64,000 bases of DNA, from the sequence record PV730299.1. The stretch is one strand, 5' to 3'. Source of the DNA: a phage. Shown in pieces: positions 1,397-62,119 of this stretch. Position numbers and translations under genes: made by a program. Below the pieces are notes generated by a model. That model was given only the letters and a program-made list of their open reading frames with translations. It did not search any database and was not told the DNA's origin. Each line of letters opens with the position of its first letter. The stretch's first letter is position 1.

Positions 1397-2047
1397 TTAT
1401 TCTCCAAAGTCGATCTTTATCTTGTCTGTTGCAAGCCCCTTCTCAAGATCATCTGCTAAAGCATTGTCGGTCTGAAGAGAAGAATCCTTGTACACGTCCG
1501 GTTCGTTCTCTTCGTCCAAGATGGACAGACGTTTGTCGATATCGTCGATCTCCGGAACGCCCGTATCGAAGTTTTCGTTGCCGTACTGGAACAACGTGCA
1601 CGGCAGAGAGAACGTATACCATTTGCCAAATTGCATGAAGTCTTCATCGTTGTTCGGGTTGTTGACCTTGAAGATCTTGTTCGCCAGTGGTAGATAGATC
1701 AGGTCACCTTCCTGAGGTTGTTGTTCAAACCCAACACCGTTGCCTATCACCTCGGCAAATCGGCGGCGCGAGATAGAGAACGTCACTTCGTCTTGCAATT
1801 GGATACCCCCAAACTTCTCCCACATCTGGGTGTTGAAGCCCTGATAATCCTGCATGTATGCTTCGATGTCGAACGCCTGATCGAATCTGTGGTTAGCATC
1901 GTTGGTGATAGGAAATTTTTCAACGATGGAACGGGGTATATACTTGATGTCTATCCCGCGCAACTCAATCATTTCCTGTACCAAATCTTCAATCAGCTTC
2001 TGTGTGCCTTGGTGATTGGTGGCGTTGAAATATTTAGAAGTGGCCAT
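1397..2047 (-). CDS. hypothetical late protein, 216 aa
   Basis: ORF track; CTAAATA late-promoter-like motif about 25 nt upstream of ATG. Confidence 0.65.
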   Translation of the reverse strand: MATSKYFNATNHQGTQKLIEDLVQEMIELRGIDIKYIPRSIVEKFPITNDANHRFDQAFDIEAYMQDYQGFNTQMWEKFGGIQLQDEVTFSISRRRFAEVIGNGVGFEQQPQEGDLIYLPLANKIFKVNNPNNDEDFMQFGKWYTFSLPCTLFQYGNENFDTGVPEIDDIDKRLSILDEENEPDVYKDSSLQTDNALADDLEKGLATDKIKIDFGE

Positions 2048-2070
2048 ATCGATACCCTCAATTTTGAAGG

Positions 2071-2077
2071 TATTTAG
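2071..2077 (-). promoter_or_regulatory. late-promoter-like motif CTAAATA
   Basis: About 25 nt upstream of ATG 2047. Confidence 0.45.
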
Positions 2078-8581: not shown

Positions 8582-8588
8582 TATTTAG
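8582..8588 (-). promoter_or_regulatory. late-promoter-like motif (ACTAAATA)
   Basis: About 35 nt upstream of ATG 8547. Confidence 0.45.
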
Positions 8589-8633: not shown

Positions 8634-8653
8634 TTGATTATCTTTCTGCGGTT

Positions 8654-8959
8654 ATGGTCATGGATTCGAGACCTCCGCATTCTTCAGGAACTATTGCAGG
8701 GGGTGCTGGTACAGCAAGAGAGTGGAGAACACAAACAAGACGAACCAATGGAATTACAGTAGTAGGTTCAGATGCTAGTGTTAAGGTACAGGGAACAGAC
8801 ATTGCTAACAGAGATAATGTATTAGCCACATACACACTTGGTTCAACCGATCCTTTCATGGTGAATGGTATTCAACTGGGTATGTTTAATATATCTGGCC
8901 AAGTAATTACTCTAACGGCAGTATCGGTTAGGGTAATACAAACAGTAAACTCTATATAA
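8654..8959 (+). CDS. possible small protein (101 aa) inside intergenic repeat copy 1; may be non-functional
   Basis: Only intact ORF among three homologous intergenic segments; copies 2 and 3 are frameshifted or truncated; no clear RBS. Confidence 0.25.
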   Translation: MVMDSRPPHSSGTIAGGAGTAREWRTQTRRTNGITVVGSDASVKVQGTDIANRDNVLATYTLGSTDPFMVNGIQLGMFNISGQVITLTAVSVRVIQTVNSI

Positions 8960-8970
8960 GAAATATTATT

Positions 8971-9004
8971 AATAAACAAAAGCTAACCCCGCAGAAGCGG
9001 GGTT
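8971..9004 (-). terminator. rho-independent terminator after the 733-aa tailspike gene
   Basis: 8-bp stem AACCCCGC/GCGGGGTT, loop AGAA, U-tracts on both strands. Confidence 0.65.
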
Positions 9005-9009
9005 ATGTT

Positions 9010-11211
9010 TTACTGAATAACAATACTACATTCAAGGTCTGAGATTACACCTGAATTGTTGTATGTCGTAATAGTCCATGATGTTGTTGATGTTTTATTA
9101 ACAACAACATACCTTCCAGTACCAGGCGAAGAAAAAGTGTAGCCTGCACGTGACATGTCAGTAGGGAAGTTGATGACCAAAACACCAACGGATGATTTAG
9201 TCGCGACACAACCCGTGGCAAGAGCAATCGCACCTGAAGAGTTGATATTAACTACGCACGGCGAACTTACCAGCTTAACCACACCAGAGTTGAGAGCATA
9301 TGTATCGTATACTGTGCCGATGCGGTTCATCCCAAGATAGGTCACCGCAGAAGAAGCCAATCCATCCCGGTTACGGAGCACGACAGACACACCAAGACCT
9401 GAGCAGTTAGTCACTTGCTGGTCAGAAACCATACCGGAAGTAGAACTGTATTGTTCAAGCACTGCGTCAACCGTGTTTGAACCGTTATAGCAGTTGAACG
9501 TTACATTTTCCAATCTGTTTCTTCGCACGCTTTTCCCGAAATCAGACCTAACATTACATATACGGTTATATTGTCCCGGTGTATTTATAATGACCATGCC
9601 GCCGCTGATAACGTTATCTAAGCAGTCTGTTAAAGAAATTTGATGGTCAAAGAAACCATAAGCACTTTTATAGTCACCGTTGTTTTGCATGAAGATCTGA
9701 ACATTTTCAAACCTGTTATTACTACATCCCTGAATTGCTAATACATGGTCGTTCCCATTAAAAGACCCATTAGCTACACTCGTGAACTTGCCACCTATAA
9801 CTTTACAGTTAGAGCACCCTCTAGAGAATTTAAGATTGTTATTACCGCCTACGGAGCCGTCAACGTTCCCCAAAACGGATGAATTCATAATACCCTCACA
9901 ATCTATGAATTTAAAATCCGTGGTCGGGAACCCAGTGCCATCTGCTGATGTGGCATGGAAGTTTATTAGTAGCCCGTTTTCTGCATATCCTTCTGACACA
10001 TAGCCACCTTTCACACCTAATATTTCCATGTTACCGCCAGCCCTTGATTGGCCTATAAATCTTGGAAATGTTATTTCAGGGTAAATTGCCCCTATTACTA
10101 CAAAATTGCCGTGGTTAGCTCCTTTGAAGCCTGTTCCGTCGAAGGTACAGCTGTTAGACCTTATTCCTTCCCTGCGTGAAGAGTCAGAGGCACCGTAAGA
10201 AGTATTTCCCATTCTCAATGGAGTTACCGATGTGCTAACGGTGTTGAACTTAATGCCTGAAACTTCCGTATAGTTACCGGTTAACTCAATCGCCCCTTTT
10301 GTGGTATCAAATGCTGAACCTGTCAAAGAGATCACAGCACCACCAATACCTATAATTCTTACACCGTCTGAAGAACTTATGACATTATTAGACAAAGAAA
10401 CTGGGATATCTATGTAGATGGTCTTGAAAGCCAATACTAGAGCGTTCATTAAGGAACTAACATCAGAACCAGAAGAAGTCCACTCTGAAATATAAGTTTC
10501 AATATGTCTGTTGTATTGCCTCAAAAACACAATTTCATCATCAACCACCACATGATCACGAGATAGTGATGAAATTACTCCGTTCACCTTGGGTTGCATC
10601 TCAAACAGTCCGTACTCAGTATTTATGAATGATGTCCCAGCAGGTATTGAGTCGCCAACATGAGCAACTTCAGACATGTTGAATGGATAAACGTTACCAC
10701 CAATCATTCTATTTCTTAAAAAATTAACGTCGCTTCTTACTACTGCATCCCCTACGCTAATCCATGCATAATGGCCTATACCACCAGTACTATCCGGGGT
10801 TGAACTAGCAGGTACAACTTTTGGAAGTTCTCCGCCCCATGAGTATTGCAATCCATTGTGGGTAAGTAACTCATTTCGAGTATTAACAGTAGAACCAGAA
10901 GTGAATGAACCAGGTAGTGTTACATATTCATTTCGCTCTGCTGCTAGTTCACCCAAATCAACAGTACCAGCTGAATGAACCAGGACTGCATGTTCATTGA
11001 GGCTTACAGCAGTAGTTCCTACAGGAAGTACAGGTAATGAGTAAGCACGTTGGGTAGACTTATCATAGATTACTTTGTAACCGCCTAAGTCTACACCTAC
11101 AGAAAAGTAGACTACTTCATTTTGCTTAACACCAAACTTACGGGCAATGGCTTGCTTATTGGTAAGAATACCAGTGGAGCCTTTACCACCTTGTGAGAAC
11201 ATTTCGTTCAT
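9010..11211 (-). CDS. tailspike protein, 733 aa, C-terminal region with beta-helix-like Gly/Asn/Ser-rich repeats
   Basis: N-terminal ~150-aa module (VVYFSVGVDLGGYKVIYDKSTQRAYSLP ... HSAGTVDLGELA ... NTRNELL) shared with three neighbouring genes; AAGAGG RBS. Confidence 0.8.
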   Translation of the reverse strand: MNEMFSQGGKGSTGILTNKQAIARKFGVKQNEVVYFSVGVDLGGYKVIYDKSTQRAYSLPVLPVGTTAVSLNEHAVLVHSAGTVDLGELAAERNEYVTLPGSFTSGSTVNTRNELLTHNGLQYSWGGELPKVVPASSTPDSTGGIGHYAWISVGDAVVRSDVNFLRNRMIGGNVYPFNMSEVAHVGDSIPAGTSFINTEYGLFEMQPKVNGVISSLSRDHVVVDDEIVFLRQYNRHIETYISEWTSSGSDVSSLMNALVLAFKTIYIDIPVSLSNNVISSSDGVRIIGIGGAVISLTGSAFDTTKGAIELTGNYTEVSGIKFNTVSTSVTPLRMGNTSYGASDSSRREGIRSNSCTFDGTGFKGANHGNFVVIGAIYPEITFPRFIGQSRAGGNMEILGVKGGYVSEGYAENGLLINFHATSADGTGFPTTDFKFIDCEGIMNSSVLGNVDGSVGGNNNLKFSRGCSNCKVIGGKFTSVANGSFNGNDHVLAIQGCSNNRFENVQIFMQNNGDYKSAYGFFDHQISLTDCLDNVISGGMVIINTPGQYNRICNVRSDFGKSVRRNRLENVTFNCYNGSNTVDAVLEQYSSTSGMVSDQQVTNCSGLGVSVVLRNRDGLASSAVTYLGMNRIGTVYDTYALNSGVVKLVSSPCVVNINSSGAIALATGCVATKSSVGVLVINFPTDMSRAGYTFSSPGTGRYVVVNKTSTTSWTITTYNNSGVISDLECSIVIQ

Positions 11212-11262
11212 AACGACCTCTTTGTTTTTCTAGTAAAGACCCTCCGAGGAGGGGGATTAATA

Positions 11263-13560
11263 TCACATAGTTAGCACACGTCTAACAATCAGAGAACCAG
11301 TAACGCCAGTAATAGACAGTCCTGTGGCAGTAAACCGACAGGACATATAACCAGTACCATCGCCAATATAGAGAGTTGTAGCATTTGTAACGTAATAGCT
11401 AATCTCATCTCTTGTGAATTTATATGGGGTTACTGGGTTATCCCCACTGGTATGAGTGATGTGGATTACCAACTCATTACAGTTTGCAATACCGGAAACT
11501 GTTATTGTAGAGGGTGCTGTTGCAACAGTAGTCCCCTCATAAGCAAGTGCTACTGGTTTAACACCACGTAAAAACTTAGGAGCACTCTGCACAGACCCGT
11601 AGATACCAACGTATGATACAGCACATACCTGCGACGGAGTTAAACCAGAACTGGCTTCTGTAGTTACCACATTAATTCGGTAAGCATTTATACGAGTAAT
11701 TTTACATACACCAAACCCAATGCCCGTATCGGCAAGTAATGCTGCTTCGTTGCTTATGGAGAAGGTTACATCAGAGTTATCAGGCATTGCTGCTGCAATT
11801 GTAGCTAGAGCAGAACCAGCAACCAACGATGCTGTATTAATGCCAAGCTCATCAAGAGAGTAGTAGCTAACCCAAAGGTTTTTTGGTACAGCACGTATTG
11901 CACTCCCCTCAGAATCTTCAGTAAAGATTACGGCATTAGTTGCAGAAGAACTACCGATATACTGTAAGAAAGACAGCTTACCTTCAAACCAAGACACTGC
12001 TTGTGGTTCATGTGAAGTAACTGTAATACCTCCAGCCAAAACGCCCATAGAGTTCCTACGGAACATTGCTCGCTCTATAACTTGACCAGTTAAGGAAACT
12101 TTAAAACAAGCCCAGTAATCATTCCATGTACCAGTAGAGGCAGCAGACCAAGAATTACCACAGGTAACGTACAAAAAACTTCCATCTGTAGTAATACCTT
12201 GTGGATACCCTGGCTTAACTAACTTACGGTCAATAGAGTTATCAGAGATAAAACCAGCGGTACGGCTAAGTACAGCAATACGAGTAATATTAGCTGTTGT
12301 ACCATCAGCATCCTGCAACTGGTAAATCAAATCTGTTTTACTGTCATAGCAGAAAGGAAAATCTTTCATAAAGCCAATACAGGCTACTTGGGAAGAAGTG
12401 CCTGCTGTGAAGTTAATTACAGTAATAGAACTGTTAGTAGCTCCCCCAATAAATACTTCACCAGACGAAAGAATACCAATACCTTGGCCGTGTGTACCAA
12501 ACGTACCTGGGAATGTTTCTTTGGCATTGGTAACTTTATTAATGCGGCTTAGGGTACAAGTGTAAGCACCACCAGAAGAAGTATCTTCTGTAATGTACCA
12601 ATAAGTGGCATCCTGGGCTAATCCTTGTGGATTAACTGATGCTACCATTACCTGGGAATAGTCTGGGGAATACTTAACAGGTATTGGTTTATAGATACTA
12701 TTCTTTAGAATCACTGATGTTTCTTCTAGTGTACCCAGCTCTTCTTGAACAGTCTTACCAGACTCAGTTCCAATAGTGGAAGCCCCTACATTTAAAGTGA
12801 GATTATCTTTAAACTCTTCTACAGAGCCTGGGACCGGTAAAAGGTCTACAATCACTGAACCGGGATTATAAGTCAGCTTACCATTGGCAACAGAATGGAT
12901 ATATACGTTAGAGGGTAATGTTGGTAATCCATATGCCTTCTGCTCACTAACAGAGTAAACAACCTTCTTACCATTGAGGTATTGAGTAGTATTAGAACTA
13001 AGGATTACTTCACTATCTTTAACGTTAGCAGTACGAGCGATTTCTTGAATACTTCGGTCAAACAACGGACTGATATTCGGTTGTTTAACAGACATTTCAG
13101 CGACTACCCAAACGCCTGCAGTCAGCGCAGTTTGTAAAGACACTTTCCCTGTCGTGCTGTCATAGGAATATTCAATTTCGGGTGTTTTGTACTCACCACC
13201 GATATAAAGAGATTGGACTCCATAAGATGTGTAATCAGGAGTGAACTCGGTTTCACCTCCTATAGCCTGAAACTTATAGATTCGAATCCCAGTTTTATAA
13301 TCTTCTGGAGACAGAATCTTATCAAACAGACAGAACACAACGTCACCTTTGGATAATGCGCGCCCGAGATTCAACGTATTTCCATCGATTTCGAAGTTGT
13401 CTAACGGAACTTGCACACCACCGTTGATTGTGACTATACCAGTGACAGGGTAGAAAGGGAGGGAGATAAACTTCTCTCCGCCCGTTGCTGTGTAAGTGTA
13501 TGGAATCTGGTGCGGAGCTGTTACGACCGCTCCAAAGATGCTCTCGACGTTTCTGGTCAT
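11263..13560 (-). CDS. tailspike protein, about 765 aa, N-terminal extension before the shared anchor module and a distinct C-terminal domain
   Basis: Shared module present internally; start set to ATG 13560 (ORF track 13575) to leave a normal leader after the CTAAATACCCC motif at 13597-13603. Confidence 0.75.
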   Translation of the reverse strand: MTRNVESIFGAVVTAPHQIPYTYTATGGEKFISLPFYPVTGIVTINGGVQVPLDNFEIDGNTLNLGRALSKGDVVFCLFDKILSPEDYKTGIRIYKFQAIGGETEFTPDYTSYGVQSLYIGGEYKTPEIEYSYDSTTGKVSLQTALTAGVWVVAEMSVKQPNISPLFDRSIQEIARTANVKDSEVILSSNTTQYLNGKKVVYSVSEQKAYGLPTLPSNVYIHSVANGKLTYNPGSVIVDLLPVPGSVEEFKDNLTLNVGASTIGTESGKTVQEELGTLEETSVILKNSIYKPIPVKYSPDYSQVMVASVNPQGLAQDATYWYITEDTSSGGAYTCTLSRINKVTNAKETFPGTFGTHGQGIGILSSGEVFIGGATNSSITVINFTAGTSSQVACIGFMKDFPFCYDSKTDLIYQLQDADGTTANITRIAVLSRTAGFISDNSIDRKLVKPGYPQGITTDGSFLYVTCGNSWSAASTGTWNDYWACFKVSLTGQVIERAMFRRNSMGVLAGGITVTSHEPQAVSWFEGKLSFLQYIGSSSATNAVIFTEDSEGSAIRAVPKNLWVSYYSLDELGINTASLVAGSALATIAAAMPDNSDVTFSISNEAALLADTGIGFGVCKITRINAYRINVVTTEASSGLTPSQVCAVSYVGIYGSVQSAPKFLRGVKPVALAYEGTTVATAPSTITVSGIANCNELVIHITHTSGDNPVTPYKFTRDEISYYVTNATTLYIGDGTGYMSCRFTATGLSITGVTGSLIVRRVLTM

Positions 13561-13596
13561 TTGAAGATACCCCATAGAGGATTTGCCAATATGGGG

Positions 13597-13603
13597 TATT
13601 TAG
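13597..13603 (-). promoter_or_regulatory. late-promoter-like motif CTAAATACCCC with inverted partner
   Basis: Upstream of ATG 13560; TACCCCATA / TATGGGGTA inverted repeat. Confidence 0.5.
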
Positions 13604-13863
13604 TCTGAACTAATAAAATTTATGAACAAAGGTATAACAAGACGAACCAATGGAACTATGGTAGTGGGTTCAGACGCTAGTGCAAAACGGACATTGCTAA
13701 CAGAGATAACGTATTAACCACACACTTGGTTCACATGGTAGATGGTATTCAGTTAGGTATGTTTATATATCCGGACAAGTAATCACCTTAACGACAGTGT
13801 CAGTTAGGGTGATGCAAACAGTGAACTCTATATAAGAAAAGCCCCCGAATTGGGGGCTTATTT
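13604..13863. repeat. inter-tailspike repeat segment, copy 2 (frameshifted)
   Basis: Same block with indels breaking the copy-1 frame; shares GGTATTTAG-CTGAACTAATAAA-TTTATGAACAAAGGTATAACAAGA with copy 3. Confidence 0.7.
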
Positions 13864-13866
13864 TTA
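13840..13866 (-). terminator. rho-independent terminator after the 768-aa tailspike gene
   Basis: Stem AGCCCCC/GGGGGCT, loop GAATT, T-run. Confidence 0.65.
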
Positions 13867-16170
13867 TACCACAGGTACTCCATTAACTCTAAATTCTTCT
13901 GTGCCGTTACTTGTACCGACGCCGCCGTTGGAAAACCGGTTTGGCGTAGCGGCATCGTAGTAGTTAGGTTCTACCTTGGCTACGCTGGTGCCGGTTGTCC
14001 TTGCGAAACGGTGCGCGTTAATGCAGCCGAAGAACTGGTTATTTCCCCACGGGAATATTGTTGTGGTATCCACATAGGTGTTGTACCACAACCCGTATGC
14101 AAAACCATAAATTTGATTCCCTCTTATATTTATGTTTTGCCCGTTTTGGTTTACCCGAATAGCGCAGTTTGATGTTGAGTCCGTAGAAGTACCATGGATT
14201 TCGTTGTTTTTAATATTTGCGCGAATTACGCCGCTAGACACAAATATTCCGTAACCGTCAGTCACGCGCTCAATACGACATCCGTCAATAGTATGCAACC
14301 GGAATAGTGTTGCGCCGCCTTTTGGCTCAAGAAAAATTCCAGCGCCAGTAGGTTCTATGCTTCTGTGCCCAATAACCATTACGTTAACCGATTCTGTCGC
14401 TATATGCACACCGTAGCCCGCGGAACCCTTATCAACACAGTTAGCTATTGTCAGCTTACCTGTACCTACAGAATCCTGAATTTTATACGCACCGTTATTA
14501 GCGTTGGCGAACCCTTCCACATAACAGTTGTTGATCATGTCTCCGTCCACTACGTCACCAAACAGAATACCAGCACCGATGTTGTCTTGATTTATACCAA
14601 AACCGCAATCGTACACGGAAACATTAGAGACTGTTGCTGGTTGGTATCGAACAGCTCCATCCAGGCCGCCGGACCGATATAAGCCCGTCCACCCTTTATC
14701 ACGGATGATAACATTGCTGACTTTTATGCCACCGCCGTATGTCTGATTGGAGTTGTAACCTATCGTAATTCCGTGACGAGCTTTAATATCTGAACGAGTC
14801 TTTGGCGTAAAATCTGTGGCGTCATACGTGAAACAGCGCCCATTGCTAATTAATATGTTTCTCCCAAAAGATAGAGAGTTTACGGAAATGCTCTGGCTGC
14901 CGTCAGAAAGACACGCAAAATTAGTTATACTGCATGATTTCGCCAACCCGGCGTTAGAAGTCCACTCAACCAAATCACCGCCAGAGGAGAATAGCGGGGA
15001 GCCGTCCCAATCATTTCGCCACCCAACAAAACCATCTATGGTCATGCTGTTGACTTCGAACCACATGACACCAGCGTTTTTCCATCCCTCACAACGGATA
15101 TCATTTAACGTAACTTCACGGCTACCTGCGATGTAAAAACCGTTTGCTTTATTTCTGTCCGTGGCTGTTAGCGAATAATCACCAAACGATTCCAGCCCTT
15201 CGATAATTATTCTGCGGGATGTGTCTTGTGGGAGTTCCACACCGTTTACGTTAGCTACAGTAGTCATCAGCCGCATTCCTTTAGCATCAATGTATTGTGG
15301 ATACGCTGGCGGTGATGGAATTAAGGCAGTTGTTTTATAAAAGACACCAACGGAACCGATACAGTGCTGCTGAGATGCCCATCTGTTAAGTGCCACGCCA
15401 TTATCAAATGATGGGTCATTAGGTATGCATCCACACTCTTCTGGTGTTAACCTGCCACGTTTAATGTTAATCCATCGACCAGCGCCAGTTACTGACGAAG
15501 GTTGAATAACCGAGAACCCATCATCGGCGGTTGTCGCAAGTGGGTGCCACTGAAAAATCCCACCGCCTACGTTATACCCAGCCAGGAAACTACGGACTAC
15601 CACTCTGTCTCCGTCAGAAAAAGGGGATAAATCGACTAAGGCTTTTAATGCCGCCACTGAAGGGAATGACCCTATTAGCGCTGCGCCTTGCTCAGATTTA
15701 AGGTCGTCGCGTAAATACGGGTCTGTCTGTGGTTTCCAATTAGCGTTTCCTACCGGGTCGGTTTCTGTAGAAATAGTTATGGGGAGGGAACCTAAGTAGG
15801 TGTAACCTATACCATTATGAAACAGTAACTCATTTCGAGTATTCACGACTAAACCGGCATCAAACGAGTCGGATAGGTTCACGAATTCTCTACGTGTAGC
15901 AGCCAGTTCACCTAAATCAACTGTGCCTGCGGAATGAACCAGGATTGCCTGTTCGTTCAGACTTATCGCAGTCGTTCCTGAAACAATACCTGAAGGAAGA
16001 GAATAAGCCCGTTGGGTAGACTCATCATAAATTACTTTAAATCCACTGAGATCAATATCAGAAGAGAAATAAACGACTTCGTCTTCTTTGACACCGAAAT
16101 TTCGAGCGATAGATTGTTTGTTAACTTCTATGGAAGTGGAGCCACGTGGTTGATTGAATTGAGAAATCAT
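13864..16170 (-). CDS. tailspike protein, 768 aa, beta-helix-like C-terminal domain
   Basis: N-terminal module highly similar to the 733-aa paralogue; CTAAATACCCC motif 30 nt upstream; hairpin terminator downstream. Confidence 0.8.
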   Translation of the reverse strand: MISQFNQPRGSTSIEVNKQSIARNFGVKEDEVVYFSSDIDLSGFKVIYDESTQRAYSLPSGIVSGTTAISLNEQAILVHSAGTVDLGELAATRREFVNLSDSFDAGLVVNTRNELLFHNGIGYTYLGSLPITISTETDPVGNANWKPQTDPYLRDDLKSEQGAALIGSFPSVAALKALVDLSPFSDGDRVVVRSFLAGYNVGGGIFQWHPLATTADDGFSVIQPSSVTGAGRWINIKRGRLTPEECGCIPNDPSFDNGVALNRWASQQHCIGSVGVFYKTTALIPSPPAYPQYIDAKGMRLMTTVANVNGVELPQDTSRRIIIEGLESFGDYSLTATDRNKANGFYIAGSREVTLNDIRCEGWKNAGVMWFEVNSMTIDGFVGWRNDWDGSPLFSSGGDLVEWTSNAGLAKSCSITNFACLSDGSQSISVNSLSFGRNILISNGRCFTYDATDFTPKTRSDIKARHGITIGYNSNQTYGGGIKVSNVIIRDKGWTGLYRSGGLDGAVRYQPATVSNVSVYDCGFGINQDNIGAGILFGDVVDGDMINNCYVEGFANANNGAYKIQDSVGTGKLTIANCVDKGSAGYGVHIATESVNVMVIGHRSIEPTGAGIFLEPKGGATLFRLHTIDGCRIERVTDGYGIFVSSGVIRANIKNNEIHGTSTDSTSNCAIRVNQNGQNINIRGNQIYGFAYGLWYNTYVDTTTIFPWGNNQFFGCINAHRFARTTGTSVAKVEPNYYDAATPNRFSNGGVGTSNGTEEFRVNGVPVV

Positions 16171-16203
16171 GATAATACCCCATAAAGGATGACCAATATG
16201 GGG

Positions 16204-16210
16204 TATTTAG
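16204..16210 (-). promoter_or_regulatory. late-promoter-like motif CTAAATACCCC with inverted partner
   Basis: 30 nt upstream of ATG 16170. Confidence 0.5.
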
Positions 16211-16466
16211 GCTGAACTAATAAATTTATGAACAAAGGTATAACAAGAACCCTGCCGAAGAGGGGGTTTGATTTTACTCTCCAAAATCACGATTACATGT
16301 GTAACCCCTAACAATTGTTGTGGATGGTATTCAGTTGGGTATGTTTAATATCTCAGGGCAAGTAATCACCATAACAGCAGTGTTAGTTAAGGTAATGCAA
16401 ACAGTAAACTCTATATAAAAAGTATCATTAGTAGGTAAAACTAACCCCGCCTGAGCGGGGTTGTTT
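16211..16466. repeat. inter-tailspike repeat segment, copy 3 (5' and 3' parts only)
   Basis: 3' part 16318-16430 could encode DGIQLGMFNISGQVITITAVLVKVMQTVNSI, matching the copy-1 C-terminus. Confidence 0.65.
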
Positions 16467-16468
16467 TT
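16443..16468 (-). terminator. rho-independent terminator after the 1047-aa tailspike gene
   Basis: Stem AACCCCGC/GCGGGGTT, loop CTGA, T-run overlapping stop codon. Confidence 0.65.
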
Positions 16469-19400
16469 ACATTGCGCTACCGTCTGCGTACTTCCATGCC
16501 TGAGCGTAAGCATCAAAGAAAGCAGGTTTCTTAGTATCAGTGTTATATATAACATGTCCATAACCGAGTAATGCCTTGTTCACCGCGTTTATTTGCGAAG
16601 TTGTTCCTGCTTTAATAATGCCTACATATCCTGCTGACTGGAGAACCCAGTTAGAGCCAGTCCAAGTAATCATTGTAGCTGAATCTGTTTGGTAGAATTT
16701 AAGACCTTCACGAAGTCTAGTGGGTCTGCCAGTAGATAAACCAACTACTGGATACCCATCTTCATCTTCCCACAATCCAGCTCCTGCACATCTTATGAAT
16801 TTAAGAAAGCTAGGGTCGTAGTATGAGAACCCTACAATTGCGGTAGCCGTGTAATCCTTCCACACCGCCGTGTTATCAAGACCCCGTACTTTTACATTCT
16901 GGACAGTAGCGCCGGATGCATTCAGTGGGTTCTGAGTGTTAACAGCATTACGACATGATATATCAATGTATGTGTATGTTGGAGCCATTTCACGAGTAAT
17001 GTTCTGGAACCCCTGATAATAGCAAGATTCTGACCTAAAACTTTCAGTTCGTATGCGGTCTGTTTTTGGATAGTAAACAGCTAACGCATTCACCGTCGCA
17101 AATGCCTCGTTTACATACGAACTTCCAACATCACTAACCCTATACGTGTTACGCCACTCTGCACCATTACTTATCCCTGCAACTGCCTCACGCATACGGA
17201 AATGGTTGTCAGCCATTTGTAATTCATCAACGTACCATGTTGCGTCTGGGTCCGCTGAGGCTTCATTTTGACCCGCAATAATAATACCTCTTGCATAAGT
17301 ACGTGCGCGGTTGTTATCAATACGGATATTTTCTATACTTTGGGATTTATGCAGCGTAACAAGACAGAATCCATATCCACCACGTAATGTGTTATGATGA
17401 AGATGTACTCGGTTTGTACCAATGAATTTAAAGCAAATTTCAACTGAAGTTTCAGCTGTTTCTGTGGTGTAGTCACGCATCACTGCCGTGTTGTTGTAGA
17501 CGAAAGCCTGACGTGTGGCACCCGTCCCGTCAGCTTGACTAGAACAATAAACCGCATGTCGATCAAGCGGAGCCCCTGAAACACCAAAGATACAACTGTC
17601 AACTGACACCAACTCACAATCAATTGGCACAGTGCCGTAACCGTATACACCCGCACTCCAGTCTTGAGACGCAAGTTGCTGGAAAACATTGTAATACTTA
17701 ACCCCATAACAAATATGAAGCTGGGCGGTAACTGTGTTTACACATGCGCTGATATTCCTCATCTCTGAGCTTTCATAATGTGCGTAAACGTTATTTACCG
17801 TAATCCCTACAACAGCCCGACCTACACCGCGAACTTTACCACCGTCTATCTTGACTTTAGTGGTTACACTTTCCACTCCCGTTCCGTCAAAAGTAAGAAT
17901 TTGATAATACGTGTTGGTATCCGTTGGAGTGAAGTTAATCCATCCGTCTGGGGTGGAGATTATTTTAATATCCTTTCCATTTAGAGATTTTCTAATTGGT
18001 GTTGTTATATTTTGCACACTATCAATAAGAACATCCGCATCGTTAGCAAGTGCGGTCTCTATAGCTGCCAGTAAAGATCCTGCTTCCGATGTCTTGACAA
18101 GCCCCCTTACTCCACCTATCAGAGAAAATCCATTATTTTTTAATAAATTACTACGCAAAGATGTGTCACCAACACTAACCCAAGCACCTAAATCAACGCC
18201 ACCAGAATTTTCTGGAGTTGAGCCAGCAGAAACTTCTTTAGGTAACACCCCATCCCAGCGATACTTACCATCAGCAAAGACAACCAGTTCGTTCTTAGTA
18301 TTAACAGTTACACCTGTTTCAAATGTCCCGGACAATGTGACGTACTCTTCACGAGATACAGCCAATTCCCCGAGATCTACAGAACCCGCTGAATGCACAA
18401 GTACAGCGGAAGGACTAAGACTGACAGCAGTAGTACCAGGGACAATATCAGCAGGCAAGGGATAAGCCCTTTGCGTCTCCTTGTCATAAATAACTTTATA
18501 CCCACTTAACGCAGCACCAACACTAAAATAAACGACCTCTGTATCTTTAACATTGGCTACACGAGCCACTTCCCGCAAAGTATAATCAATTTGATTATAG
18601 ATGTTTGGTGTTCCATTGATAATTACAACAACTTCATCTTCTGGTTCCAGTTCTTGTGCAAGAGAGATTTTACTGGTTAATGGATCGAATGTGAATCCCA
18701 GATTTTTATACTGGCGACTTCCGTTTATATCAATGGCCGGAACATCATCAACAACGACGTCCAACGTGATTTCGGTTTCACCGCCAATCGCTGAACCCCC
18801 ATTATAGACCCAGGTAATCGTAGAAGAACCAGAACCACCGACATTACCCAATTGAATAGGAGTATATTCAATCACCTGAAGTTCTGTGTTGGCTGGCAAA
18901 GAAGGACTGAAAGTGATTACATTCCCATCTAGTGAATATTTGGATTCCGCAAGACGTTTTCCGTCAGCATACACGTCCACAATTGTTGGTGGAGTATTGA
19001 GATTGACAGTACTTGTTTCAGACGCCAAAATTTTTGTAAAGATTTCACGACTGTAGACACGACCTTGGCCAAGACCGACGCCGGATGTAATAATCCAACC
19101 TTGTTCAGGTCCTGACCAAGTGAACGTTGCTGATACGTTATCAGTTGTTATAGCCATGTCTTCAGTGGAGCCATACAAATTATTCCCAGAAGGAGACACG
19201 GTCAATGGGTAAGTGGCAAATTTCCCATAAGCGTCACAAATAGTAACAGAATCCCCAACGCGCGTAGGGGAAGGGAGAACCACTGTAGATACCCCTGTGG
19301 TATTATTAATGAGATAGCCTCGCCCTCCAGTGAGCGTTGCCGTAGAGGCATGCGGAAGGACTTCCCAGCGGATACCACCGCCACCCAGCGGCAACCATCC

Positions 19401-19610
19401 ACCATTTTCATAGAAGCCCTCAAATTCGTCGGAGTCGGCATTGTAGCGAACGGAAGACGGGAGTCCTGCGCTGGCATTACCCTCGGGTAAAGTCAGGACA
19501 GCATCTGGTCCATGCTCAATCGTACCCGTGTTGAGGACACCAGCCAAAGTAGACTGCTCTTCAGCCGCCAGACCGAGAGGGAAAACAGGCTGTGTTGGTT
19601 TATTAGCCAT
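16467..19610 (-). CDS. tailspike protein, about 1047 aa, with ~350-aa N-terminal extension (likely baseplate attachment)
   Basis: Shared anchor module internal; start moved to ATG 19610 (MANKPTQ) because ORF-track ATG at 19640 lies 4 nt from the promoter motif. Confidence 0.75.
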   Translation of the reverse strand: MANKPTQPVFPLGLAAEEQSTLAGVLNTGTIEHGPDAVLTLPEGNASAGLPSSVRYNADSDEFEGFYENGGWLPLGGGGIRWEVLPHASTATLTGGRGYLINNTTGVSTVVLPSPTRVGDSVTICDAYGKFATYPLTVSPSGNNLYGSTEDMAITTDNVSATFTWSGPEQGWIITSGVGLGQGRVYSREIFTKILASETSTVNLNTPPTIVDVYADGKRLAESKYSLDGNVITFSPSLPANTELQVIEYTPIQLGNVGGSGSSTITWVYNGGSAIGGETEITLDVVVDDVPAIDINGSRQYKNLGFTFDPLTSKISLAQELEPEDEVVVIINGTPNIYNQIDYTLREVARVANVKDTEVVYFSVGAALSGYKVIYDKETQRAYPLPADIVPGTTAVSLSPSAVLVHSAGSVDLGELAVSREEYVTLSGTFETGVTVNTKNELVVFADGKYRWDGVLPKEVSAGSTPENSGGVDLGAWVSVGDTSLRSNLLKNNGFSLIGGVRGLVKTSEAGSLLAAIETALANDADVLIDSVQNITTPIRKSLNGKDIKIISTPDGWINFTPTDTNTYYQILTFDGTGVESVTTKVKIDGGKVRGVGRAVVGITVNNVYAHYESSEMRNISACVNTVTAQLHICYGVKYYNVFQQLASQDWSAGVYGYGTVPIDCELVSVDSCIFGVSGAPLDRHAVYCSSQADGTGATRQAFVYNNTAVMRDYTTETAETSVEICFKFIGTNRVHLHHNTLRGGYGFCLVTLHKSQSIENIRIDNNRARTYARGIIIAGQNEASADPDATWYVDELQMADNHFRMREAVAGISNGAEWRNTYRVSDVGSSYVNEAFATVNALAVYYPKTDRIRTESFRSESCYYQGFQNITREMAPTYTYIDISCRNAVNTQNPLNASGATVQNVKVRGLDNTAVWKDYTATAIVGFSYYDPSFLKFIRCAGAGLWEDEDGYPVVGLSTGRPTRLREGLKFYQTDSATMITWTGSNWVLQSAGYVGIIKAGTTSQINAVNKALLGYGHVIYNTDTKKPAFFDAYAQAWKYADGSAM

Positions 19611-19647
19611 TTCAAATACCCCTAAATGTGTTCGTTTCATCTAGGGG

Positions 19648-19654
19648 TATTTAG
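19648..19654 (-). promoter_or_regulatory. late-promoter-like motif CTAAATACCCC with inverted partner
   Basis: 34 nt upstream of ATG 19610. Confidence 0.5.
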
Positions 19655-21710: not shown

Positions 21711-23472
21711 AACGCACCTCCGGCTCCACAGTTACAGCACCGATGCGGAGCACCTGATTCTGTGTGGCCTGAATGTTCTGGTCAAGACCGTCTGGAGATA
21801 CAATTATTGTCACACCCTCAGTGTTGTAGTTGGATACTATGATACGCTGGAGTTCAACAACGCCAGTTGCATAATCAACCGTTCCAACAGCTTGTACCAG
21901 ATATTCCTTGGTCGTATCTGTTGTACTCACCTTGTACATATTCAGGACACCACTGACGTCGCGTATGTAGTAAGTGAATTCGACCTCGGCCGGAAGCGGC
22001 TTAAACCCACTGATACGCACAGAACCAGACGCAATCGAGCGCCCAAACTCGAATGTGAAGCTGTCCAGTACCCCGTAGTCTGGCTTGAAATGGCGTTTAT
22101 ACTTCACAGAAGTGATGTTTGACACTATCGATCTGTCCATGTCGGTGATGGCCGACTGTAACTGCTCTTTATCGAACAGTTCGTCGAATCCTTCTAGATT
22201 CCCCAAGCCCCAGTTGACAACACCGTTCTTCACGACTGTCTTCAACTGCTCTTCGGTATAGGACGTGGAAGTCGGATCCCAGAACACGCGGGTGGTGACA
22301 TCAACATAAGTCAGTTCAGCGTCGACAATCTTGGGTGTGATCGTGCCCACATTGTACTTGTCCAACGTCGCCACGATATCTGCCTTCTCAGCGCCCGAGA
22401 GAGCCTCACCAACAGAAGGTATCACAGCAATGTAAACGTATCCGGAGTCGGGCGGAGAGAGCGTGTCGCCGCCATATGCTTTGGCGCGGGAGACGTTGGA
22501 GAACAGACGCTCGGTCAACACAGCATAATCGACTTCGGCCACTGCCGCACCCTCAGCCTGATAAGCCAGCGGAGCAAGGCGCTTGATGTCCTCAATGCTC
22601 TCTGGGTCCTTACCACCAGAAGAACGTTCTGACACCAGCTCAACATCTACAAGGTTGAATCCCCCGATGGAAGACGCGGAGGACAAGGTAGTGATGTCAT
22701 TGCCGTCTGCACCAGCTGTCTCCAGATACTGGAGGTACACGACGTTCCCGTCTTCTACTCGCTTACAGATATACCCATCACCGAATTCGAACGTGTACAA
22801 CCCGTCCAACCCCAGCTCAACGAAGTAAAGTTGCGCATACTGGCTCAAATCGAACGGGCTGACATATCGTGAGAAGGTAGACCGCACGTCAGATGTCTCA
22901 GATTCCTGCACCTGCACCACCATATGGTCGATGTCCACGGAAGAAGATGGGATCACATAGGTAGAGATCGCGCTGCCTTCCACATCATAGGACTTGTACA
23001 GCCAGTTACCTTGTATGAGTTTGATGTTCTCGAACTTGTAAGAGCCGTCTACAAGAGAGGCACTCACAGGTTGGTCAACCGTGAAGTTATAGGATTTGCC
23101 ATCCTTCACCCCAATGAACATCGCGCGGCGATCCATTACAATCGTGTCTGGAGCCGTGCTGGCGTCATATGGAGTGACTGTGACGTTTGCGTACAGGTAC
23201 GCGGCCTGGTAGTTGTGAGGGGTGTAAGATAAGAACCCCGCCGCCAGACCGACATTAGAACGCTGTTGAGCAGAGTGAAGATGGCTTTCGCCATTCAGCA
23301 TGTTCTGCATGAACCCGATAGAGTTGGCATCCGAGGCCAAGATACGCACGATTGCACTGAGACCAGAACCTTCAAAGTCATAATCCTTGAAAGTTGGATC
23401 AGCTTTCATGCGCTTCTTGATAAGATACTCGAAAGCCCTGACATCGAGTGAAGGGACTGTTTGCGTGGCCAT
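21694..23472 (-). CDS. baseplate wedge protein, T4 gp6-like
   Basis: N-terminal DYDFEGS motif and MATQTV start resemble T4 gp6 as I recall it; start set to ATG 23472 (ORF track 23523); CTAAATA motif about 40 nt upstream. Confidence 0.7.
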   Translation of the reverse strand: MATQTVPSLDVRAFEYLIKKRMKADPTFKDYDFEGSGLSAIVRILASDANSIGFMQNMLNGESHLHSAQQRSNVGLAAGFLSYTPHNYQAAYLYANVTVTPYDASTAPDTIVMDRRAMFIGVKDGKSYNFTVDQPVSASLVDGSYKFENIKLIQGNWLYKSYDVEGSAISTYVIPSSSVDIDHMVVQVQESETSDVRSTFSRYVSPFDLSQYAQLYFVELGLDGLYTFEFGDGYICKRVEDGNVVYLQYLETAGADGNDITTLSSASSIGGFNLVDVELVSERSSGGKDPESIEDIKRLAPLAYQAEGAAVAEVDYAVLTERLFSNVSRAKAYGGDTLSPPDSGYVYIAVIPSVGEALSGAEKADIVATLDKYNVGTITPKIVDAELTYVDVTTRVFWDPTSTSYTEEQLKTVVKNGVVNWGLGNLEGFDELFDKEQLQSAITDMDRSIVSNITSVKYKRHFKPDYGVLDSFTFEFGRSIASGSVRISGFKPLPAEVEFTYYIRDVSGVLNMYKVSTTDTTKEYLVQAVGTVDYATGVVELQRIIVSNYNTEGVTIIVSPDGLDQNIQATQNQVLRIGAVTVEPEVRYVQRS

Positions 23473-23512
23473 GATAATCTCCATCACCTGAGTTTGAATA
23501 TGGTGTTGAAGA

Positions 23513-23519
23513 TATTTAG
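23513..23519 (-). promoter_or_regulatory. late-promoter-like motif CTAAATA
   Basis: About 40 nt upstream of gp6-like ATG 23472. Confidence 0.4.
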
Positions 23520-26439: not shown

Positions 26440-26516
26440 GGTCCTGTAGCTCAGTCGGTTAGAGCAGTGAACTCATAATTCATTGGTCATTGGTTCAAAC
26501 CCAATCAGGATCACCA
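26440..26516 (+). tRNA. tRNA with CAT anticodon (Met, or Ile2 if lysidine-modified)
   Basis: Manual cloverleaf: acceptor GGTCCTG/CAGGATC, D-arm GCTC-AGTCGGTTA-GAGC, anticodon loop CTCATAA, T-arm ATTGG-TTCAAAC-CCAAT, encoded CCA. Confidence 0.85.
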
Positions 26517-26769: not shown

Positions 26770-26858
26770 GGAAGGTTGCCCGAGAGGTTTAAGGGACTCG
26801 ACTGCTAATCGAGTGGGGCTTTTAGCCCCCGAAGGTTCGAATCCTTCACCTTCCGCCA
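26770..26858 (+). tRNA. tRNA-Ser (GCT anticodon), type II with long variable arm
   Basis: Manual cloverleaf: acceptor GGAAGGT/ACCTTCC, anticodon loop CTGCTAA, variable arm GTGGGGCTTTTAGCCCCC, T-arm GAAGG-TTCGAAT-CCTTC, discriminator G plus CCA. Confidence 0.85.
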
Positions 26859-27228
26859 AATTACGGGCGTGACTTCCTGAAGAGTTAGAAGATGTGCATG
26901 TCGACTCTCTCGTAATCGGGGTGTTTAGGAAGTTAAGAAAATCGCGGCGAGGATAGTGAAATGCAAATAGCTTTCTCTACGTCGACGACTTCAGGTTCGA
27001 CTCCTGACGCGCTCTCCCATAGGGTAGTACCAGTGCAAGCGTGTAGTCTTTCAACCCATCCCATCGATGTGGTATAGCCGGATATCCTATCCGGCTTTCT
27101 TTTTATCCCTGTCTTATTATCTTCTTATCGGCCCAAGCATGTCCTCCTTTATCATAGTTTGTTCAATGATACAAAGGGGGTTTAAAATTTAACCGTTAAC
27201 CCCCTGTCATAGATTTGAGGATACACCG

Positions 27229-27886: not shown

Positions 27887-27908
27887 TCCGAGATTCTCCT
27901 TTTCTATA

Positions 27909-27948
27909 CTCCTGTAGATACACTATGATAAGCCAATGTCTACAGGAG
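27909..27948 (+). promoter_or_regulatory. perfect 10-bp inverted repeat hairpin sequestering the RBS of the PLP-enzyme gene
   Basis: CTCCTGTAGA (27909-27918) pairs with TCTACAGGAG (27939-27948); 3' arm contains the AGGAG RBS. Confidence 0.45.
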
Positions 27949-27956
27949 AAAATAGA

Positions 27957-29156: not shown

Positions 29157-29167
29157 CTAAATACCCC
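29157..29167 (+). promoter_or_regulatory. late-promoter-like motif CTAAATACCCC (distal copy)
   Basis: Followed by ATACCCCATAC / GTGTGGGGTAT inverted repeat. Confidence 0.4.
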
Positions 29168-29255
29168 ATACAACCAGTGTGGGGTATCTATGAAACCTTC
29201 CTCCAATATTTCCTAGAGGCGTCCTGTACAAACCAGGCCTCGCCAAGCGGGAAGC

Positions 29256-29266
29256 CTAAATACCCC
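29256..29266 (+). promoter_or_regulatory. late-promoter-like motif CTAAATACCCC (proximal copy)
   Basis: 29 nt upstream of ATG 29295. Confidence 0.5.
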
Positions 29267-38887: not shown

Positions 38888-38895
38888 TATAAATA
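38888..38895 (+). promoter_or_regulatory. TATAAATA, canonical T4-type late promoter sequence
   Basis: 29 nt upstream of ATG 38924; overlaps 5' arm of a hairpin. Confidence 0.35.
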
Positions 38896-38923
38896 TCCTC
38901 GCCTATAAAGCGAGGATATTATC

Positions 38924-39091
38924 ATGTTACAAGATCTGCTGGTTTATGCGCTTCCTGGCGCGGTTGTCGGCTTCATTGCTGGTGCTCTGGTCTTCCGTAA
39001 ACACGCGCAAGATGGTGAAGTGATTGTTCAGAAAGGCAAAGAGATTCTGGACCAGATCGAAGCCAAACTGGAAGAGCTGAAGAAAAAGTAA
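38924..39091 (+). CDS. small membrane protein, 55 aa
   Basis: Manual ORF; hydrophobic N-terminal helix; strong terminator downstream; TATAAATA 29 nt upstream. Confidence 0.4.
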   Translation: MLQDLLVYALPGAVVGFIAGALVFRKHAQDGEVIVQKGKEILDQIEAKLEELKKK

Positions 39092-39119
39092 TCTGACTGG
39101 GGTTGCTTCCTTCAATAAA

Positions 39120-39158
39120 GGGGAATGGGTTATTATTAGCCCATTCCCCTTTCTTTTT
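39120..39158 (+). terminator. rho-independent terminator
   Basis: 10-bp stem GGGGAATGGG/CCCATTCCCC, loop TTATTATTAG, then TTTCTTTTT; preceded by TTCAATAAA. Confidence 0.75.
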
Positions 39159-41182: not shown

Positions 41183-41596
41183 ATGAGCGTGAAACTCACT
41201 GAATCCCTGACACTGGACCAACAGCAGGCTTTGTTGGATGAGGTAGTGATCTCTGCTATCAAGCAAGGGATTATCAAAGACGACTTGTTGATTGACCGTC
41301 CCGAGATGATCCATCATCTGGTGGTGTGCCTGGGTGAGGCCAGCAACCCTCGCAAGAAGATCGTGCTGTTTACTGATGGTGTGATCCTTCCGAGCGGGAA
41401 ATGTGCGTTCTTGGATGTGGTTGAACATCCGAACACGAAAGGCAAAGAGGTCAAGACTTCTGTTCCGGTGACTCCATACACCGAGGGTGTTGACCATCTG
41501 TCTTGGTTTGAGACAATCAACACCATTTATGTGATGACACCGGACGGTAAACCAGTTCGGGATCTACGAGGCGGCAAAGTAGAATCTGAAGACTAA
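41183..41596 (+). CDS. hypothetical protein, 137 aa
   Basis: Start set to ATG 41183 after LemA stop. Confidence 0.5.
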   Translation: MSVKLTESLTLDQQQALLDEVVISAIKQGIIKDDLLIDRPEMIHHLVVCLGEASNPRKKIVLFTDGVILPSGKCAFLDVVEHPNTKGKEVKTSVPVTPYTEGVDHLSWFETINTIYVMTPDGKPVRDLRGGKVESED

Positions 41597-41612
41597 TCGT
41601 TCTTCAATAAAA

Positions 41613-41646
41613 GGGGATAGGGTATTATTGCTCTATCCCTTTTTCG
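41613..41646 (+). terminator. rho-independent terminator
   Basis: Stem GGGATAG/CTATCCC, loop with TATTATT, then TTTTT; preceded by TTCAATAAA. Confidence 0.7.
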
Positions 41647-41707
41647 TGGACAGGAACATGACAGACAAGCCAAGAAAGATGAAGAACAAACACCGGAGCA
41701 AACGCTG

Positions 41708-42363: not shown

Positions 42364-42504
42364 GGAGTGCCTGAAGGATCTTTCTACAGGCAATCCAAAG
42401 TTGGCCAGATCATGGGTGATGTTTGATGACCGACGAGATAATCTTCCTTCGAGCAGAGGTCGCTCGATTAAGTAAAACCGAACCCAAAAAGTAGAGGATA
42501 TGTT

Positions 42505-42852: not shown

Positions 42853-42861
42853 TCTGAACAA

Positions 42862-62089: not shown

Positions 62090-62096
62090 CTAAATA
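62090..62096 (+). promoter_or_regulatory. late-promoter-like motif CTAAATA
   Basis: 35 nt upstream of ATG 62131. Confidence 0.45.
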
Positions 62097-62112
62097 GCCA
62101 TAACACTCTATC

Positions 62113-62119
62113 TATTTAA
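62113..62119 (-). promoter_or_regulatory. late-promoter-like motif (TTAAATA variant)
   Basis: About 30 nt upstream of minus-strand ATG 62080; divergent from the promoter at 62090. Confidence 0.3.

Follow-up and report, generated by a model that had tools for sequence, protein, structure and literature searches.

A putative late-only translational lock in an Ackermannviridae phage: late promoters embedded in hairpins over the ribosome-binding site

On early and middle read-through RNAs of phage T4 (genes e, soc, 49, I-TevI, I-TevII, I-TevIII and segB) and of Aeromonas phage Aeh1 (mobE), the Shine-Dalgarno (SD) sequence is tied up in a helix. The late promoter overlaps or adjoins the 5' strand of that helix, and late RNAs, which are made without this strand, are translated (PMC3014915, PMC2988022). 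The effect of the lock on T4 gene e is about 100-fold, and the mechanism has been demonstrated experimentally for T4 e, 49, soc, I-TevI and segB and for Aeh1 mobE (PMC3014915, PMC2988022). The T4 late promoter, TATAAATA, spans -13 to -6 (PMC2988020, PMC1524935), and Aeh1 uses the variant CTAAATA, which starts at -12 (PMC1524935). Here we describe a similar arrangement in a 64,000-nucleotide (nt) stretch of phage DNA (PV730299.1; the whole stretch is called the window below), where CTAAATA stands before late genes and, at three tailspike genes and several others, overlaps the 5' strand of a hairpin that has the SD in its 3' strand. The best explanation is probably that a gp55-type late promoter lies within the 5' strand of an SD-masking hairpin, which would leave the gene's own late promoter as its sole source of expression.

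The window belongs to an Ackermannviridae (ViI-like) phage, and in sequence searches its tailspike region matched ViI-like phages that infect Salmonella and Escherichia. Among complete genomes, the closest is that of Escherichia phage LHE287, whose aligned blocks are 93.6-98.8% identical to the window, most of the tailspike region being unaligned. LHE287 encodes gp55 (phrog_234, E = 5.7e-52), gp33 (phrog_254) and gp45, the T4-like late sigma factor, co-activator and clamp; these genes were read from LHE287, their positions falling outside the 64-kb window.

For ViI-like phages, the string CTAAATAcCcc has already been cited as a regulatory motif (PMC7283392). The accessible text of that paper gives it merely as a string with coordinates and mentions neither pairing of cCcc with the SD nor a hairpin, and both are likewise absent from the genome papers of LIMEstone1 (PMC3296691) and CBA120 (PMC3184105). 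The motif itself is thus a published one, not a novel one, as is CTAAATA in Aeh1 (PMC1524935). In the accessible literature, which did not cover the motif's original description, we found no account of coupling between a promoter and a ribosome-binding-site (RBS) hairpin in Ackermannviridae. That original description is said to be by Adriaenssens et al., 2012, in Arch Virol.

CTAAATA as a late promoter

By itself, CTAAATA is modestly over-represented in the window, with 10 exact sites against 4.6 expected, a number reached in 3 of 100 shuffles; TATAAATA occurs there only once, at 38888. Nine of the ten sites, all present at the coordinates and on the strands first listed, lie in the correct orientation upstream of a start codon, at 30-47 nt from the ATG and not at the 25-40 nt originally given. 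One of these nine, at 29157, is a valid site that precedes merely an 8-codon remnant open reading frame (ORF) and not a late gene, as had been assumed. The tenth, at 2031 on the minus strand, falls within the gp14 coding sequence and is probably there by chance.

Placement was then compared with that of other hexamers. Of the 25 TAAATA sites in the window, 13 are followed at 18-46 nt by the start of an ORF with an SD, versus 4-16% for the 14 other permutations of the same hexamer, a placement that is far from random and supports the proposal of a late promoter. The genes 3' of the motifs are three of the four tailspike genes (TSPa, TSPb and TSPc here) and those for neck protein gp14, baseplate wedge protein gp6, a VriC-like giant protein, gp48 and a phrog_3852 protein. 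In LHE287, 27 of 183 genes have an NTAAATA motif in promoter position, including gp18, gp19, gp22, gp2/gp54, gp4/gp48 and the endolysin. Across the two genomes, the motifs are co-oriented with genes for tailspikes, gp6, gp14, gp18, gp19, gp22, gp48, gp4, gp2, gp54 and endolysin, as expected of late promoters.

(T/C)TAAATA is a -10 type element without a -35 element, which is the make-up of gp55-type late promoters. Two divergent gene pairs, about 50 nt apart, carry one motif per strand, which fits a promoter and not an RNA processing signal. A pyrimidine-rich stretch after TAAATA is general, and is found even at promoters without a stem (UCUUUC, UCUCUA, UCCCAA). The make-up and placement of CTAAATA support the view that it behaves as a known gp55-type late promoter of the -10 type. 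By the T4/Aeh1 rule, the predicted +1 is the sixth nt after the motif.

Hairpins joining the promoter to the Shine-Dalgarno sequence

The extended motif CTAAATACCCC has five exact sites in the window and one further site with a single mismatch, against 0.53 expected, and the published 11-mer CTAAATAcCcc has five exact copies. The pattern ATACCCC-N8-30-GGGGTAT, with cores spaced 13 to 21 nt apart, matches four times in the window and not once in 100 shuffles, so the palindrome across promoter and leader that the initial annotation pointed out is real, and folding of the leaders at its four sites (13597, 16204, 19648 and 29157) agrees (z values in Table 1). The annotation had given one pair of arms, CCCCATA/TATGGGG, to the three tailspikes and 29157, and had confined the extension to them. 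Inverted copies are indeed present at all four. At 19648, however, the arms are not the shared ones: the motif reads CTAAATACCCCTAG and its partner CATTTAGGGGTATTT (CCCCTAG/CTAGGGG), a compensatory difference, and the partner at 29157 is corrected to GTGTGGGGTAT. The extension, here to CTAAATACCCCATATGG, is found at 29256 too, although that site is without an inverted copy. The element is specific to a subset of late genes, as proposed, although that subset also includes hairpins at 2071, 23513 and 38888 that had been missed.

Six leaders in the window fold at z -4.5 to -8.1, and the gp6 leader folds less markedly (Table 1). All are built alike, with stems of 9-16 bp and loops of 4 to 13 nt. 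The 5' arm begins inside the motif (AAUA) and extends through the following 5-9 nt, the stems starting at motif positions 0-7. The 3' arm is an SD-like G run followed by UAU(U); it contains GGGG, GAGGG, GGAG or GAGGA and ends 0-5 nt before the AUG. The SD therefore lies in the 3' strand of a stable helix. The arms themselves differ between genes and phages: CCCCATA/TATGGGG, CCCCTAG/CTAGGGG, GCCCATA/TATGGGC, CCCGTAAC/GTTACGGG, CCTTCA/TGAGGG and TCCTCGC/GCGAGGA. A whole-window Rfam scan at gathering thresholds returned two tRNAs only and no curated family over the hairpin leaders.

We then brought 56 distinct structured leaders, belonging to 11 gene groups, into a common register by their promoters; the pairs in this register table are taken from the minimum free energy (MFE) fold of each sequence, which makes them canonical by construction. 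Counting from the T of TAAATA, the 5' arm covers positions 3-12 (about -9 to +2), with the predicted +1 at position 11. In the window, the 5' arm ends 1-3 nt from the predicted +1, or 6 nt at gp6 and TSPc, so a late RNA starting there would keep only that much of the arm and could not form the SD-covering helix. The late promoter thus sits in the 5' strand at the sequence level, and the exclusion of this strand from late RNA depends on the predicted +1. Such a hairpin accompanies about 7 of 14 late promoters in the window, and in LHE287 about 8 of 27.

The predicted probability that the SD is unpaired rises from 0.00-0.27 on read-through RNAs to 0.36-0.58 on predicted late RNAs in five of the six units evaluated; at TSPc, it goes from 0.00 to 0.58. 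TSPa is not among the six, as its value had been computed at the wrong start codon.

Based on these features, we propose the following course of events. RNAs arriving from upstream, whether by early or middle read-through or by leakage from the preceding late unit, would carry both strands, fold, mask the ribosome site and be poorly translated. RNA polymerase with the phage late sigma factor would start about 6 nt after CTAAATA, near the end of the 5' strand, and the resulting RNA, without the masking strand, would be translated. The net effect would be expression solely from the gene's own late promoter. The hairpin had initially been taken for a possible structure of the late leader; with the predicted late RNA beginning near the end of the 5' arm, it would instead belong to the longer read-through RNAs.

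Several observations weigh against this proposal. We found no mapping of transcription starts for Ackermannviridae in the literature, and the +1 is thus an analogy. At gp6, the unpaired probability of the SD hardly moves, from 0.10 to 0.18, leaving the SD of the predicted late RNA poorly accessible. Canonical terminators stand 5' of the TSPa, TSPb, gp6 and gp14 promoters, so read-through there may be small; TSPc, the 55-amino-acid (aa) gene at 38888 and the 29157 orphan adjoin upstream genes of the same orientation, and no terminator separates them. Hairpins over the SD are not rare either: in a loose genome-wide test, which counts any hairpin of -10 kcal/mol or better over the SD window and separates motif genes weakly, they occurred at 33 of 156 motif-less genes versus 12 of 27 motif genes (odds ratio 3, p = 0.012). 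Finally, GGGG runs match the SD less well than GGAG does. The fixed register of the 5' arm and the permutation test described below are stronger evidence than the loose hairpin count.

The positions of all units are given in Table 1. At TSPa, none of 200 shuffles was equally stable, and the minus strand from 13603 to 13558 reads CTAAATACCCCATATTGGCAAATCCTCTATGGGGTATCTTCAAATG. The true start is the ATG at 13558-13560; another in-frame ATG, at 13573-13575, falls inside the 3' arm, and we place the start at 13560 because in relatives the upstream ATG is out of frame or leads into a stop (a stop in L005 and L004; relatives are given L numbers here). In-frame ATGs within hairpins, such as this one and that in the TSPc 5' arm (19638-19640), are chosen as starts by ORF finders, and in LHE287 a hairpin-internal ATG is the annotated start of the tailspike gene at 137019-139256. 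The promoter regions of TSPa and TSPb are near-identical over 62 nt, and the TSPc unit adjoins the stop codon (19663) of its upstream neighbour. The gp14 hairpin is kept in 16 of 21 relatives.

The orphan ORF behind the 29157 hairpin (MKPSSNIS) is the remnant of a gene that is intact, at 151-154 aa, in L003, L004, L005, L008 and L009. The intact gene has the pattern MKTFLE...HGSNVEFD...GQTD.GT.GPGFYL; it is lost in the window phage and L001, and 23 codons are left in L002. The CTAAATACCCC promoters at 29157 and 29256 are correspondingly 99 nt apart in the window and 486-494 nt apart in the five relatives with the intact gene.

The stretch 38888-39152 forms a self-contained mini-cassette within a plus-strand block of apparently early genes: a TATAAATA promoter that overlaps the stop codon of the upstream gene, the hairpin, the phrog_3879 gene (55 aa, function unknown) and, at 39117-39152, a terminator of 16 bp. 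At gp4/gp48 in the window and at gp2/gp54 in LHE287 (55102-55156), opposite-strand TAAATA motifs lie 20-25 nt apart, which places the complement of each promoter in the leader of the other gene and makes the region naturally palindromic. The inverted repeat at 62090-62118 is simply two promoters facing each other.

Table 1. Late promoters and hairpin units in the window (MFE in kcal/mol)
Feature	Position	Strand	MFE	z	Details
TSPa promoter CTAAATA	13597..13603	-			predicted +1 ~13591; -12..-6 by T4/Aeh1 rule (PMC2988020, PMC1524935)
TSPa 5' arm AUACCCCAUA	13590..13599	-	-16.3	-5.2	overlaps promoter and predicted -9 to +2
TSPa 3' arm UAUGGGGUAU	13567..13576	-			Shine-Dalgarno-like G run + UAU
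TSPb unit	16168..16210	-	-19.6	-5.9	motif 16204-16210; arms 16197-16207, 16174-16184; ATG 16168-16170
TSPc unit	19608..19654	-	-21	-8.1	motif 19648-19654; 5' arm 19638-19653 (UAAAUACCCCUAGAUG); 3' arm 19613-19628 (CAUUUAGGGGUAUUUG); ATG 19608-19610
Orphan unit	29157..29192	+		-5.3	motif 29157-29163; arms 29161-29171, 29177-29187; ATG 29190, then 8 codons
gp14 (neck/head-completion) unit	2045..2077	-	-10.2	-4.5	motif 2071-2077; arms 2065-2073 (AUACCUUCA), 2052-2060 (UGAGGGUAU); ATG 2045-2047
gp6 (baseplate wedge) unit	23470..23519	-	-11.6	-2.7	motif 23513-23519; arms 23502-23513 (AUCUUCAACACC), 23477-23488 (GGUGAUGGAGAU); ATG 23470-23472
TATAAATA-type promoter unit	38888..38926	+	-15.9	-6.3	promoter 38888-38895; arms 38892-38902 (AAUAUCCUCGC), 38910-38920 (GCGAGGAUAUU); ATG 38924
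CTAAATACCCC late promoter of phrog_3852 gene	29256..29262	+		0.04	ATG 29295; no hairpin in window
CTAAATA promoter of 1612-aa VriC-like gene	8582..8588	-		-0.98	weak CUCUAU/AUGGAG pairing only
Back-to-back late promoters	62090..62118	.			CTAAATA(+) for gp48, TTAAATA(-) for gp4

Base pairing in relatives and competing explanations

In LHE287, the promoter and SD segments of the same gene form duplexes of -7.0 kcal/mol on average, versus -4.5 kcal/mol when the segments are swapped between genes (permutation p < 1e-4); the swapped segments pair no better than those of motif-less genes (-4.9 kcal/mol). LHE287 and its relatives carry the element at two further genes, a muramidase endolysin (PF11860) and a RuvC-like Holliday-junction resolvase (phrog_159), which in LHE287 are embedded in co-oriented clusters of genes for replication and nucleotide metabolism.

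Orthologous leaders, drawn from 23 IMG/VR contigs, keep the pairing through compensatory change. In the resolvase stem, both arms change together, from AAAUAGCCCAUA/UAUGGGCUAUUU to AAAUACCCAUAAC/GUUAUGGGUAUUU and AAAUACCCGUAAC/GUUACGGGUAUUU; the endolysin stem goes from ACCUCUGC/GUGGAGGU to ACCCUCUG/CAGAGGGU, the gp6 stem from UCUUC/GGAGA to UCUCC/GGAGA in Kuttervirus-like relatives, and the stem of the 55-aa gene varies via G-U intermediates. Conservation of the TSPa leader starts precisely at CTAAATA, with unrelated upstream flanks across phages. The phrog_3852 leader, stemless in the window, has a AAUACCCCAAUGA/UCAUUGGGGUAUU stem in more distant relatives (L072-L074). In the Kuttervirus-like L006 and L007, the same leader has a 15-bp stem, GGUUCUCAGUGUGG/CCACACUGAGGAUC (-26.8 kcal/mol), with the 5' arm entirely upstream of the promoter and the whole promoter in the loop, an independent solution that would exclude the 5' strand from late RNA in a different way.

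RNAalifold on MAFFT alignments recovered the resolvase and endolysin stems with 1 and 2 compensatory pairs, counts that underestimate the covariation because MAFFT misaligned a paired G/C indel and the rearranged stems of L051 and L052; we therefore replaced them with the table anchored on the promoter register. A scan of IMG/VR for CTAAATACCCC-N8-30-GGGGTAT found at least 120 loci. Among the matches listed, 76 of 136 have an extended stem and an ATG within 10 nt, with many further stem variants, and the remainder are unrelated terminators or chance; since the pattern presupposes both arms, it gives no unbiased frequency. Arm variation with complementarity kept fits, on these comparisons, selection for base pairing and not for a protein-binding sequence.

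The alternative that holds up best is that the hairpin acts as a weak intrinsic terminator, pause or processing site on incoming RNAs, making the insulation transcriptional, or both transcriptional and translational; RNAs from the embedded promoter would escape, being without the 5' arm. We regard this as unlikely. A moderately U-rich stretch does follow the 3' arm (UAUUU, UAUCUU), and the stem of Kuttervirus-like relatives is followed by UAUUUUCAAAUG or UAUUUUUAUG, but the 8 nt after the stems in the window hold 2-4 T against at least 5 at its real terminators, and the U's that exist pair with the promoter's AAAUA. The A-rich 5' and U-rich 3' flanks resemble bidirectional terminators, and unrelated phage contigs have true terminators of the form AAAUACCCCCG...CGGGGGUAUUUUU. 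Yet none of the seven hairpins was flagged in a terminator scan, including those at gp14, the orphan and 38888, whose loops are short enough to qualify. Moreover, canonical GC-rich terminators already stand 5' of four of these promoters, and the T4 counterpart works on translation. The hairpins may still act as terminators as a second effect. Processing by RNase III was another candidate; at 9-16 bp, the stems are shorter than its typical substrates.

Less probable still is that the complementarity is a by-product, in which a cCcc discriminator happens to match a GGGG or GGAG SD and the remainder comes from duplicated tailspike leaders or facing promoters. The pyrimidine-rich sequence after TAAATA does occur without stems, but the stems extend well beyond a CCCC/GGGG match, and segments swapped between genes lose the advantage of a gene's own pair. 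The near-identity of TSPa and TSPb is consistent with duplication, but at least 7 non-paralogous gene groups have differing stems and compensatory changes occur within orthologues; a chance match of discriminator and SD explains neither the stem length nor this covariation. The repeats at 62090-62118 and at LHE287 gp2/gp54 are truly divergent promoters, whereas the tailspike 3' arms, when reverse-complemented (GATACCCC, TAATACCCC, CAAATACCCC), do not give TAAATA promoters and that strand bears no gene. For the same reason, the 3' arm was rejected as an antisense promoter.

A DNA operator, first suggested for the palindrome, in which a dimeric phage or host protein on ATACCCC/GGGGTAT repeats would regulate some late promoters, draws on the exact repeat common to four sites and on I-TevI autorepression, in which a T4 protein binds over a late promoter (PMC2988022), but is very improbable given the variable sequence and spacing and the compensatory nature of the changes: the cores have no constant spacing, the same architecture recurs with unrelated arms (CCUUCA, UCUUCAACACC, UCCUCGC, GCCCAUA), orthologous arms change jointly on both sides, the 3' arm is always the SD at 0-5 nt before the AUG, which an operator would not need, and the L006/L007 arms flank the promoter and have no sequence in common with the others.

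Neighbouring sequences and comparison with the T4 and Aeh1 locks

Other features of the region were noted alongside the hairpins. A repeated non-coding module of about 120-250 nt (families D2-D4 and D6; 61-90% identity) lies 3' of three tailspike genes, at 8734-8981, 13636-13857 and 16222-16440. Two of the three copies end beside near-identical terminators, TAACCCCGC...GCGGGGTT, at 8984-9005 and 16442-16463, and small minus-strand ORFs overlap two copies (8638-8859, 16331-16561). The module may serve as recombination homology for the exchange of tailspike cassettes. The receptor-binding part of TSPb (13855-15568) is 84-88% identical in DNA to the Kayfunavirus (T7-like podovirus) phages PDP351P4 and PDP351P3, which points to a recent exchange of tailspike modules between myovirus and podoviruses.

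The fourth tailspike gene (9010-11262, 733 aa) is without CTAAATA. It is preceded by a terminator at 11240-11253 (CCCTCCTCGGAGGG + TCTTTACT) and then the leader agaaaaacaaagaggtcgttATG, a promoterless layout that is kept before the homologous tailspike in many relatives (the TSPb group). With a terminator on its 5' side and no promoter, this gene is predicted to be expressed only by leak-through of the terminator.

Three other leaders or motif sites deserve mention. At 27897-27960, a 22-nt inverted repeat (TCCTTTTCTATACTCCTGTAGA / TCTACAGGAGAAAATAGAATGA) spans the SD and start of the phrog_3650 gene, which ends at 29150; it is predicted to be a strong RBS-masking hairpin (-20.8 kcal/mol in LHE287), with no TAAATA in or near its 5' arm. 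The one-mismatch site CTAAACACCCC, at 26918-26928 on the minus strand near plus-strand tRNA genes (26440-26513, 26770-26855), is followed only by a 4-codon ORF and is probably non-functional as a promoter, or may be another remnant. In LHE287, the DNA ligase leader (gene 41501-42931) has an 11-bp stem, CCAGGGTTATA...TATAACCCTGG, over the SD GGAG (-20.4 kcal/mol), with three extra outer pairs across a bulge and a TATAAT hexamer in the 5' arm; it may represent the same lock principle with a sigma-70-type promoter.

The main new points concern breadth, the hairpins accompanying about one third of late promoters (three of them at tailspike genes), and the interpretation of cCcc as a strand complementary to the SD. 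For a motif so far merely listed in Ackermannviridae genome papers, this offers a mechanistic reading, in which the ribosome-binding site is the pairing partner of the C run that follows CTAAATA. More tentatively, the cCcc tail might be the anti-SD strand and not a promoter-recognition element, and promoter-embedded RBS locks a general Ackermannviridae device at about one third of late promoters.

On this more tentative reading, each tailspike gene would be a self-contained cassette of terminator, promoter with lock, conserved N-terminal anchor, variable receptor-binding part and terminator. Its output would be set by its own promoter alone, giving a fixed stoichiometry of the branched tailspike complex, and cassettes would be exchangeable between phages with neighbouring genes undisturbed. 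Ackermannviridae tailspikes are swapped to retarget host range, and keeping or breaking the 5' or SD arm would then alter expression. The lock model also predicts the start positions of late transcripts, and start-codon calls are corrected where hairpin-internal in-frame ATGs had been mis-annotated as starts, as in the LHE287 tailspike.

The closest counterpart is T4 gene e, whose leader contains UUUUAUAAAUACCUUCUAUAAAUACUUAGGAGGUAUUAUG and reads TTTTATAAATACCTTCTATAAATACTTAGGAGGTATTATG. Its 5' arm, AAUACCUUCUA, starts in the promoter and runs from the promoter's AAUA into the pyrimidine anti-SD CCUUC; its 3' arm, UAGGAGGUAUU, is the SD followed by UAU(U), with the AUG directly after. Both parts are laid out in the same way in the window. 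Where T4 gene e reads UAUAAAUACCUUCUA...UAGGAGGUAUUAUG, gp14 in the window reads CUAAAUACCUUCAAAAUUGAGGGUAUCGAUAUG, and the gp14 leader, CTAAATACCTTCAAAATTGAGGGTATCGATATG, follows the gene e layout with nearly identical sequence logic. The stability of the gene e hairpin is similar to that of the window hairpins (-10 to -21 kcal/mol), and the LHE287 endolysin has the same element. Because the layout equals that of the T4 lysozyme gene, we consider it a real element of a known kind.

There are also differences. The promoter in the window has C, not A, at -12, a variant it has in common with Aeh1; there is one promoter per hairpin, versus two in T4 gene e; and the element is used chiefly on virion genes (three tailspikes, gp14 and gp6), several of them behind terminators. 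Regulation of T4 gene e is known experimentally, whereas the lock of the window phage is predicted from its sequence. At T4 49, soc, I-TevI, I-TevII, I-TevIII and segB and at Aeh1 mobE, the late promoter is placed so that late RNA loses the SD-masking 5' strand, as predicted for the window.

A T4 lysozyme-type late-only translational lock would thus be common to a second gp55-encoding phage family, and there it includes two enzymes that are not homologous to those of T4, an endolysin and a Holliday-junction resolvase. In function, the RuvC-like resolvase of LHE287 and its relatives corresponds to T4 gp49, and the LHE287 endolysin to T4 e. Since RuvC-like enzymes and endonuclease VII are non-homologous, as are the muramidase and T4 lysozyme, the parallel lies in regulatory logic and not in inherited sequence.

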